A DNA stretch of 64,000 bases from Escherichia coli (GCF_024502345.1 NZ_JALDNN010000002.1), one strand, 5' to 3'; counted from the first letter of the stretch, positions 30,137 to 33,100 are shown. Program-made: the numbers.

Positions 30137-33100
30137 TAAAAACCGGAAATAACGCCAGAAATGGTGGAAAAAATAGCCTAAATAGGCTGATTCGATGTGT
30201 TTGCGGGAAAAAAATCGGCCCAGATCCGCGAAATTTTAATCAGCGAGTCAGCTTGGGAAGAAATGACCTGCTTATTCGCACCTTCCTTAATATAAAGACA
30301 CAAGCAGAGACATTTTTGGCACGATATAAAAACGCTAAGTTAAAAAATCACTATGACGTGTTGGGTATCAAATGTTCACTGGCATAAACCTCTGTTTCTG
30401 ATGTAAAACAGATTTTCTGAGGAGGCGTAAAACCTCCTCGTACTGCGAAATTGATTTAGTGATAGCGATCGATCACGCCAACCAGATAGTGGTCGGTTTG
30501 CTGCATGTTGATGCCCGCTTTTTTAGCGCTGCGGACTTCATCCAGAATGATTTGCAACAGCGTCCCGTCCACGATTTCCTCTTTTCTGTATCGCTTCAGG
30601 AAGTTAATCGCTGACTTATCGTTTGCTGCCTGGGCGTCTTCCGTCAAAGAGGTCAGCGCATTAATGCGCTTCTGGTAATCGCTTACCGTCTGCTCAAACA
30701 GATCTTCCAGCGTGGAAAATTCACCGCACCGGGCGTGTTGCTCCTGTAACACCGGCGTGGCGCCGCTCTGTTTGATGTATTCGTACATGCGCATCATTTG
30801 CGTCACCGTATTTTGCGCCTGATGACGCAAAAATAGTGCGGTGCCATTAAGGCTATTCTCGCTGCACCTCTGGCTGAGCTGAAGATACAAATTTGAGGTA
30901 TAAAACTCCTGATTCATTTGCGCATTCAGTTTTTGAACTATTCCGCTAGCGATCATAGGACTTCCTTATTTCTTGTCATCTCAGAAAACGGTCACTCTTC
31001 GAAAAAACAACCAGAATAAAAGCGATTCTTTCGCTTTTTTTATTGCGCCTGGTTACACAGTCATATTCATTTTAAGTCGGGATGCTCCTTATTTAAATAT
31101 CCAACCCTACTATCGCATTTCTATCTGGCATTATTCTGTGATGGTGTTTCGATATTCACACTCCCTGTGCCAATCCTTTCTTATCGACAGTAGGAAACTT
31201 CCTCCGGCTATTCTGCTGAACACGATTAGGGGCACTGTTGCAAAGTTAGCGATGAGGCAGCGTTTTGTCTTATTCAAAGGCCTTACATTTCAAAAACTCT
31301 GCTTACCAGGCGCATTTCGCCCAGGGGATCACCATAATAAAATGCTGAGGCCTGGCCTTTGCGTAGTGCACGCATCACCTCAATACCTTTGATGGTGGCG
31401 TAAGCCGTCTTCATGGATTTAAATCCCAGCGTGGCGCCGATTATCCGTTTCAGTTTGCCATGATCGCATTCAATCACGTTGTTCCGGTACTTAATCTGTC
31501 GGTGTTCAACGTCAGACGGGCACCGGCCTTCGCGTTTGAGCAGAGCAAGCGCGCGACCATAGGCGGGCGCTTTATCCGTGTTGATGAATCGCGGGATCTG
31601 CCACTTCTTCACGTTGTTGAGGATTTTACCCAGAAACCGGTATGCAGCTTTGCTGTTACGACGGGAGGAGAGATAAAAATCGACAGTGCGGCCCCGGCTG
31701 TCGACGGCCCGGTACAGATACGCCCAGCGGCCATTGACCTTCACGTAGGTTTCATCCATGTGCCACGGGCAAAGATCGGAAGGGTTACGCCAGTACCAGC
31801 GCAGCCGTTTTTCCATTTCAGGCGCATAACGCTGAACCCAGCGGTAAATCGTGGAGTGATCGACATTCACTCCGCGTTCAGCCAGCATCTCCTGCAGCTC
31901 ACGGTAACTGATGCCGTATTTGCAGTACCAGCGTACGGCCCACAGAATGATGTCACGCTGAAAATGCCGGCCTTTGAATGGGTTCATGTGCAGCTCCATC
32001 AGCAAAAGGGGATGATAAGTTTATCACCACCGACTATTTGCAACAGTGCCGGCAGACGAACTACAGTTGCCGCGGGGCAGGTATTCAACGCTCCAGGTGG
32101 AGCCACTGGCATCCGGGGTACGCCGTCTGGAAGACTGTTATCGCGGGCTGCAGGAAAAAATCGTGCAGCTCGAAGGCAAAAAACGGTCGCAAAAACAGTT
32201 GATTGCTTCACATAAGAATCGTCCTTTTTATCATCTGTGGCACAGAAAAGGGGGCCAGCTCCCGGACGAGAAATGTGATGCCCTGCCCTGCCACTGCGGG
32301 CAGAAACACTGTCTCTGCCGCAGATCGGGGATTCAGACCTGGAGGTGGCGCAACGGGCAACCGGGGTCATCCGGCTGGCTACCCTGTGTGCTCAGTCGCA
32401 GAAAAGAATCCTGGAGCTGGAAAGGGATCTTGCCTCACAAAGTGAGGAGCTCGTTGACCTGCAGGCACATCCCTTTTTTAACCTGTGGGATAAATACCGC
32501 GACCTGATCCTGTTCTGGGGGGCGTGGTGACTTTTCTGGACTTTATCAGTGGATGTTGGGGGCATGAATGTTCCCGTTCCATAGCCACACACTGAAGAGG
32601 ACTGAAACCAGTGCCCGAAAATATCGTGTCTGTAATCACTGACGGGGTAGTTTTGTTTGCGACTTCGTCTGTTTTCTGGCTGGCCGTCGCTGGCTGGTTA
32701 GTCATCCTGACTCCGGTAATATTACGAAGAAAATTCTCGGCAAAGAAAAAAGTTAACAGAAATTATGAATAACCTGGTTCCAGTTGGATCTCCGTCATCT
32801 CCCGGAACATTGCTTCCGGTGGCCATCGATTACCCTGCCGCCCTCGCCCTGCGCCAGATGGCGCTCGTGCAGGATGAACTGCCGAAATACCTGCTGGCGC
32901 CGGAAGTCAGCGCCCTGCTCCATTACGTGCCGGATCTTCACCGCAAGATGCTGCTGGTGACGCTGTGGAACACCGGCGCGCGCATTAATGAAGCGCTCGC
33001 GCTGACCCGGGGGGATTTTTCACTGACGCCGCCGTATCCGTTCGTGCAGCTGGCCACGCTCAAGCAGCGCGCCGAGAAAGCGGCCAGGACGGCAGGTCGT

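Follow-up and report, generated by a model that had tools for sequence, protein, structure and literature searches.

The RepFIA region of the F plasmid holds, from nucleotide 45922 on, the rfsF sites followed by oriV-1, ccdAB, and resD (PMC4398462). On plasmid R64, position 43620 is the start coordinate of the segment 'rfsF to yfcA' (PMC8004404), and the rfsF site has been described with a geometry that matches 10-bp arms separated by an 8-bp spacer (PMC5587640). In untruncated relatives of the locus studied here, the gene order is vapCB, ccdA, ccdB, zero to three small open reading frames (ORFs), a gene for a 338-residue hypothetical protein, and an integrase gene. We analyzed a 64,000-nucleotide stretch of Escherichia coli DNA (NZ_JALDNN010000002.1), referred to as the window, in which an IS26 element is followed by two overlapping plus-strand ORFs (ORF 1 and ORF 2, Table 1) and a resD gene. 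We conclude that the segment 32051-32567, which lies between IS26 and resD, is very probably the dead 3' remnant of one plasmid-backbone gene that was cut by IS26, carries three insertions or deletions (indels), and represents a case of ordinary decay. The gene is a known but uncharacterized part of the plasmid backbone, of which an identical allele has been flagged elsewhere as a pseudogene by the Prokaryotic Genome Annotation Pipeline (PGAP).

The 714 bp that separate IS26 from the recombinase gene were found in 1,400 PLSDB plasmids, 1,277 of them from Klebsiella, with a nucleotide identity of 93-100% over positions 32051-32764. At least 80% of the segment was covered in 1,384 of these plasmids. 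Shorter matches (695-697 bp) were common in the 80-90% identity band and are represented by L007, L009, and L011 among the loci that were fetched for comparison. A single coding sequence of 334-338 amino acids is annotated across the segment in L001, L002, L003, L007-L010, and L012, and examples of the intact gene are WP_319161900 (p64EVAM-7) and WP_009309921 (pKPC-0cc9). Homology to the untruncated relatives opens exactly at 32051, the first base past IS26. From there, the translated frames of the remnant reproduce amino acids 169-338 of the family protein, and the ancestral stop codon is the TGA at 32565-32567. According to the alignment with intact genes, codons 1-168 (the first 503 nucleotides) of the parent gene are gone from the window. 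The window copy is homologous to the family, but a continuous full-length ORF with the N-terminal domain is lacking. Because 503 nucleotides have been removed and three frameshifting indels are present, the copy is a pseudogene remnant and not a functional member of the family, and we infer that it has no protein function. The original prediction had described two overlapping plus-strand ORFs with a shared motif and a frameshifted gene whose 5' end was cut by IS26. The ORFs and the motif are present as described (ORF listing, product alignment), and the truncated, frameshifted gene is borne out by the alignments to intact relatives. The homologue search found such relatives, and the region is coding in most of them.

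Among the sequences aligned, the three indels are private to the window, to E. coli plasmid PCN061p6, and to the Norwegian K. pneumoniae plasmid NZ_CP073793.1 (L013). They spread the remaining codons over three frames, and the 5-bp insertion parts ORF 1 from ORF 2. The sum of the indels is +3, and the first frame is regained only for the last six codons (WMLGA and the stop). Both PCN061p6 and NZ_CP073793.1 are 100% identical to the window over the 714 bp and carry the same three indels, and in both the gene is uncut by IS26. The occurrence of an uncut but frameshifted allele in two other plasmids suggests that the frameshifts are older than the IS26 event.

The IS26 element shows all characteristics of its family (IS6), namely a DDE transposase, 14-bp inverted repeats, and a length of 820 bp. 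Its transposase ORF (31283..32005) scored 275.5 bits on the IS6-family model NF033587, and the 14-bp terminal inverted repeats, GGCACTGTTGCAAA and TTTGCAACAGTGCC, were read directly at 31231 and 32050. The 8-mers flanking the element differ, with CGATTAGG on the left (31223-31230) and GGCAGACG on the right (32051-32058); there is no target-site duplication. The DNA that lies upstream in the relatives, that is, the 5' half of the gene, ccdAB, and vapBC, is absent from the whole 64-kb window. The differing flanks together with the absence of the upstream DNA indicate an IS26-mediated deletion or recombination and not a simple insertion. Neither PLSDB nor the complete E. coli genomes yielded a match to the right-hand junction between IS26 and the remnant. 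The left-hand junction is common (253 plasmid records). The left neighbor of IS26 is a non-heme ferritin-like gene (30456-30956; NF011597, 210 bits).

The proposed course of events would comprise two steps. First, three slippage-type indels (duplication of TGCCC, loss of one G of a G7 run, and loss of one A) would have destroyed the reading frame. Second, an IS26-mediated event would have removed everything upstream of codon 169, including a GNAT domain (see below), ccdAB, vapBC, and rfsF. The remnant would at most be transcribed as a leader of resD. Some points speak against this scenario. The order in which frameshifts precede IS26 is drawn from two other plasmids only, and the net indel sum of +3 can be read as a partial restoration of the frame, though only for the last six codons. 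Furthermore, a truncated 153-residue product could be made from the GTG at 32046 inside the IS26 end, and the replicon could carry an rfsF site beyond the 64 kb of the window.

Table 1. Features of the IS26-resD region, with positions counted from the first letter of the window.
Feature	Position	Strand	Basis
IS26, 820 bp; right end truncates the gene	31231..32050	-	terminal inverted repeats; transposase model match
Pseudogene remnant, codons 169-338 of a 338-residue plasmid 'hypothetical protein' (WP_009309921 / WP_319161900 family)	32051..32567	+	alignment with intact genes in L001, L002 (2498..3514)
ORF 1, 153 residues; GTG start inside the IS26 end, closes in out-of-frame sequence	32046..32507	+	ORF listing
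ORF 2, 61 residues; frame other than that of ORF 1	32345..32530	+	ORF listing
Repeat unit 1, residues 169-233 of unit 165-233, with PFYHLW; read by ORF 1	32052..32246	+	protein alignments; AlphaFold helix 187-224
Repeat unit 2, residues 246-314, with PLRAE linker and HPFFNLW; read by ORF 2	32283..32494	+	protein alignments; AlphaFold helix 262-305
Frameshift 1 (+5), tandem TGCCC TGCCC; one TGCCC in relatives	32279..32288	+	nucleotide alignment
Frameshift 2 (-1), G6 run; G7 in relatives	32517..32522	+	nucleotide alignment
Frameshift 3 (-1), ATC-AG; ATCAAG or ATCTAC in relatives, one A missing at ~32548	32547..32549	+	nucleotide alignment
Remnant of C-terminal hydrophobic (tail-anchor-like) helix LILFWGGVVTFLDFIKWML, broken by two 1-bp deletions	32504..32564	+	hydropathy; AlphaFold helix 309-337
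75-residue ORF, antisense to gene tail and 53-residue ORF	32478..32705	-	ORF listing
53-residue ORF, GTG start, hydrophobic; overlaps the resD ATG by 8 nucleotides	32611..32772	+	annotated in some records (WP_020804313, WP_032495756)
Direct repeats CTGGCTGG-ccgtcg-CTGGCTGG, site of a 14-bp deletion polymorphism	32676..32697	+	alignment; deletion in L007, L009, L011
resD, tyrosine recombinase	32765..33559	+	87% identity to F ResD over 252 residues; Pfam Phage_integrase, E=8.6e-19

The 338-residue parent protein comprises a divergent GNAT-like N-terminal domain (residues ~1-186), two 81-residue units, and a hydrophobic C-terminal helix. Searches of Pfam, NCBIfam, PADLOC, PHROGs, and PDB sequences with the intact protein and the window ORFs gave only coiled-coil matches at noise level, and none of the 93 homologue clusters of the parent is named. 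A profile search of 1.84 billion representatives yielded 130 matches. These include proteins of 250-300 residues that are 20-38% identical to the N-terminal domain and aligned over the first ~190 residues of the parent. The Pfam families Acetyltransf_7 and Acetyltransf_1 were touched by 11 and 10, respectively, of 23 aligned members (E<=0.1). The distant relatives P0105 and P0099 reached 22.1 and 20.8 bits, which is marginal with respect to the Pfam gathering cut-off of 20.7 bits, and the Klebsiella protein itself has no Pfam match. When the profile of the N-terminal domain was compared with PDB sequences, the best E value was ~0.7, for two GNAT-type chains. The sequence contains the acetyl-CoA motif A (Q/R-x-x-G-x-G/A) in the form of QGHGLG at residues 102-107. 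G103 and G107 are near-invariant across 23 relatives (16-50% identity), and the motif RRxR(F/L)(Y/W)xxxGF is conserved in the family. An AlphaFold model for residues 1-191 has a predicted local distance difference test score of 85.5, and the modelled alpha/beta fold is consistent with a GNAT-like N-terminal domain. The full-length model has long helices at residues 187-224 and 262-305 and a terminal helix at 309-337. In the parent, as in 11 homologues, the most hydrophobic stretch of 19 residues falls within the final ~40 positions.

A GNAT toxin paired with a ribbon-helix-helix (RHH) antitoxin in a type II system, as in TacAT and KacAT, was considered and rejected. Such toxins measure ~160-180 residues, whereas the parent has 338 residues with a coiled coil and a hydrophobic tail. 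The 103- and 111-residue proteins encoded upstream match neither RHH nor any other family. A weak FitA-like RHH neighbor occurs at one distant locus only (L014). The distant homologues at L014 and L016, with an identity to the parent of only ~35%, are encoded directly 5' of a ResD-like integrase gene, with rfsF further upstream. This placement indicates that the association with resD is conserved. A third distant homologue (L015) resides in another mobile-element context, and no conserved partner is shared by the neighbors of the distant homologues and the Klebsiella loci.

The N-terminal third of the parent occurs in two sequence types (MTDGV... and MEAKT...), each joined to a near-identical C-terminal half. 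This pattern suggests that recombination may have taken place within the 338-residue gene. In L011 (CP110559.1), the gene has been inactivated independently by a 1-bp deletion in an A run. For the alleles with 710-bp matches (H3 and H11-H21 of the PLSDB search), no coding sequence is listed. The gene seems to have been lost repeatedly.

On sequence grounds, the recombinase encoded downstream is a true ResD, orthologous to that of the F plasmid (Table 1). An inverted repeat, AGATCCGAAA-accccaag-TTACGGATCT, is located at positions 45922-45949 of F, and the identical sequence is found at positions 43620-43647 of R64. As these positions equal the published rfsF coordinates, rfsF was taken as AGATCCGAAA-N8-TTACGGATCT. 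Our first candidate for the site, a conserved block GGTACACTTCCGGAAA...AAAGTCGGATCC located 5' of ccdA, was dropped because the published coordinates fit the inverted repeat exactly. With at most three mismatches, 13 of the 16 loci that were fetched carry the repeat, and in those examined it heads the plus-strand operon. In F and the sampled ccdAB-bearing relatives, it precedes ccdA; in R64, the resD operon follows it directly. In L001 and L002, rfsF is found 390-420 bp 5' of ccdA, which is ~1.6 kb beyond the point that matches the IS26 junction. In the 64-kb window, the pattern AGATCCGAAA-N8-TTNCGGATCT gave no match at up to three mismatches. A repeat search of 32051-34000 revealed no inverted repeat with arms of 10-14 bp and a spacer of 6-8 bp in the region between IS26 and resD. 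Thus, the resolution site that had been expected inside 32046-32760 is not there; in the relatives, rfsF lies elsewhere, and the window lacks it. It appears that the IS26 event left resD orphaned from rfsF, at least within the window. The content between rfsF and the parent gene varies among L001-L003, L007-L012, L014, and L016, with ccdAB present or absent and with different small hypothetical genes. In its behavior, this segment resembles a cargo region with rfsF and resD as its borders.

The conservation in front of resD could also mean that 32530-32764 contains the site at which ResD recombines, or some other cis element (for instance, a promoter or operator of resD), but we consider this very unlikely. 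Resolvase genes often adjoin their sites. Moreover, the ~115 bp directly 5' of the resD ATG (32649-32764) are near-invariant in relatives whose neighboring gene diverges by 7-13%. However, neither an rfsF-like repeat at up to three mismatches nor an inverted repeat of the right geometry was detected, and rfsF is located at the operon head in F, R64, and 11 other loci. A role as promoter is possible, but 32649-32764 contains no consensus promoter. The single consensus-like site found by the promoter scan (32207-32234) is within chance expectation. The near-invariant block may nevertheless be a cis-acting element for the expression of resD.

It is highly improbable that the remnant is still in use. 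In that case, a hybrid promoter at the IS26 end would drive the synthesis of a truncated peptide, either coiled-coil or membrane-bound, or the frames would be rejoined by programmed frameshifting. IS26 ends form outward hybrid promoters, there is no terminator-like site between IS26 and resD, and the indels add up to +3. On the other hand, neither a slippery sequence nor a stimulatory element was seen, and Rfam gave no match in 31800-34200. To read the frame between 32284 and 32516, two separate shifts would be needed. The C-terminal helix is broken, and the allele is rare, with only 9 of the 1,400 records being at least 99% identical to the window segment. Because no terminator-like site separates the dead remnant from resD, read-through transcription from IS26 or the remnant into resD would be plausible.

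There is hardly any likelihood that the frameshifts are errors of sequencing or assembly in a gene whose 3' part is actually intact. Homopolymer runs (G6/G7 and A/AA), where such errors are typical, contain or adjoin two of the three indels. Yet two independent, completely sequenced plasmids (PCN061p6 and NZ_CP073793.1) share the same indels and are 100% identical to the window over the 714 bp, which argues against sequencing error. Slippage of a sequencer in a homopolymer does not account for the 5-bp duplication, and IS26 takes half of the gene regardless of the indels.

The motif shared by the two ORFs derives from the architecture of the parent protein. The products of ORF 1 and ORF 2 are 33% identical over 46 residues without gaps (E=3e-7). 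Likewise, residues 165-233 and 246-314 of the parent align without gaps at an offset of 81 residues, with 36% identity over 69 residues (E=6e-13). In each repeat unit, a PLRA(D/E)xLxLP linker is followed by a long helix and the motif HPF(Y/F)xLW. At the DNA level, a vestige of the repeat (family D2) is visible at 32158-32176 and 32406-32424, with a spacing of 248, equal to 243 + 5 bp. We conclude that each overlapping ORF reads one of the two repeat units and that the 5-bp insertion created the two frames. Distant homologues of 250-300 residues have one such unit, which indicates an old duplication that is specific to the clade from Klebsiella plasmids. The term 'duplicated' in the original prediction is therefore apt for an ancient internal 81-residue tandem repeat of the parent protein, but not for the gene, which is not present in two copies. 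That the ORFs are two real genes, either duplicated paralogues or an overlapping pair for small coiled-coil proteins, is extremely unlikely: both are open and their products are alike and look like coiled coils, with weak matches to PKcGMP_CC and SlyX-like families, but all sampled relatives without the indels have one continuous frame of 334-338 residues, ORF 1 begins inside IS26 and ends in out-of-frame sequence, and the split is confined to the allele with the 5-bp insertion.

The region also contains two small ORFs, one antisense to the tail of the remnant and one that overlaps the start of resD (Table 1). The minus-strand ORF of 75 residues was rightly noted in the original prediction, but it does not qualify as a gene, as its length or frame shifts among nine relatives. 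It measures 90 residues in L001, 47 in L002, L010, and L012, and 65 in L008; in L007, L009, and L011, the frame and the sequence are different. Only the allele that bears the 1-bp deletions has the 75-residue form, which matches no family. To judge from this sequence comparison, the ORF is spurious, a chance product of the indels.

The 53-residue ORF had no family match above threshold. Its length is kept in 7 of the 10 sequences compared (six relatives and the window), and in L007, L009, and L011 it is frameshifted to 43 or 48 residues by a 14-bp deletion. This deletion, between two copies of CTGGCTGG, looks like replication slippage. Codon variants of the ORF comprise 2 synonymous and 14 non-synonymous changes, a weak test because the tail of the real gene also has many non-synonymous changes. 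Such counts separated the frames poorly even for the real gene and were used only as weak evidence against the 53-residue ORF. It is doubtful and probably not a conserved gene. For the region as a whole, three apparent small genes can be dropped as by-products of IS26 truncation and indel decay, a result of little biological weight.

Downstream of resD, a hydrophobic ORF of 65 residues without a family match is located on the minus strand (33646-33843), between resD and a partition operon. In relatives, different small hypothetical ORFs are annotated in this spacer. The parA-like operon, also on the minus strand, comprises an ORF of 100 residues (33983..34285) and a gene for a ParA-family ATPase (34282..34911). 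Six tandem 8-bp units (AACAAGAT) at 33926-33989 lie just upstream of this divergent operon. The array is probably a partition centromere or operator. The right-hand part of the window (32051-57000) matches Klebsiella plasmid backbones with RepB and RepE initiators. Such backbones also carry a umuC-like gene for a Y-family DNA polymerase, ltrA for a group II intron reverse transcriptase, and several insertion sequence elements. The composition resembles that of IncR/IncFIA-type backbones.

For annotation, the gain is that the 'hypothetical protein' encoded between ccdB and resD on Klebsiella plasmids can be described as having a GNAT-like domain, an 81-residue repeat, and a tail-anchor-like helix. 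In addition, a simple pattern suffices to find rfsF where the ccdAB-resD operon begins, and this pattern reveals that resD is without a site here. The parent family, unannotated GNAT-like proteins with a coiled coil and a C-terminal membrane anchor, is encoded time and again directly 5' of resD, within the rfsF-resD segment of F-like, IncFIB(K), and IncR-type plasmids. A more speculative proposal, which we regard as unlikely, is that this family represents an unrecognized plasmid-maintenance or toxin-like factor and that the replicon of the window perhaps lacks ResD-dependent multimer resolution. If true, the repeated inactivation of the parent gene (the window allele, L011, and the 710-bp alleles) would reflect a cost to the host.

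Compared with the GNAT superfamily, the parent protein adds a C-terminus with a coiled coil and a tail anchor, and none of the GNAT domain survives in the window. With regard to the F module (rfsF, oriV1, ccdA, ccdB, resD), the relatives keep the rfsF repeat and ccdAB upstream in the same order. In F, however, ccdB abuts resD, whereas in this plasmid family the two are separated by one to three extra genes. Unlike the F module, the window has lost rfsF and ccdAB, and its resD is without a site in cis within 64 kb. On PCN061p6, the pseudogene PCN061_RS24585 (NZ_CP006642.1, 88384..89431) bears the PGAP label 'hypothetical protein, frameshifted'. In contrast to the window copy, it is not truncated by IS26 and has retained ccdAB, rfsF, and vapBC on its 5' side. 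The intact genes of the WP_009309921 / WP_319161900 type, which reside on IncFIB(K)/IncFII/IncR-like plasmids of Klebsiella, differ from the window copy, which has no codons 1-168, carries the +5/-1/-1 indels, and has no continuous frame. Nevertheless, their 3' half is 93-99% identical to 32051-32567 at the nucleotide level, and the remnant has the same position and orientation as these genes, directly 5' of resD.

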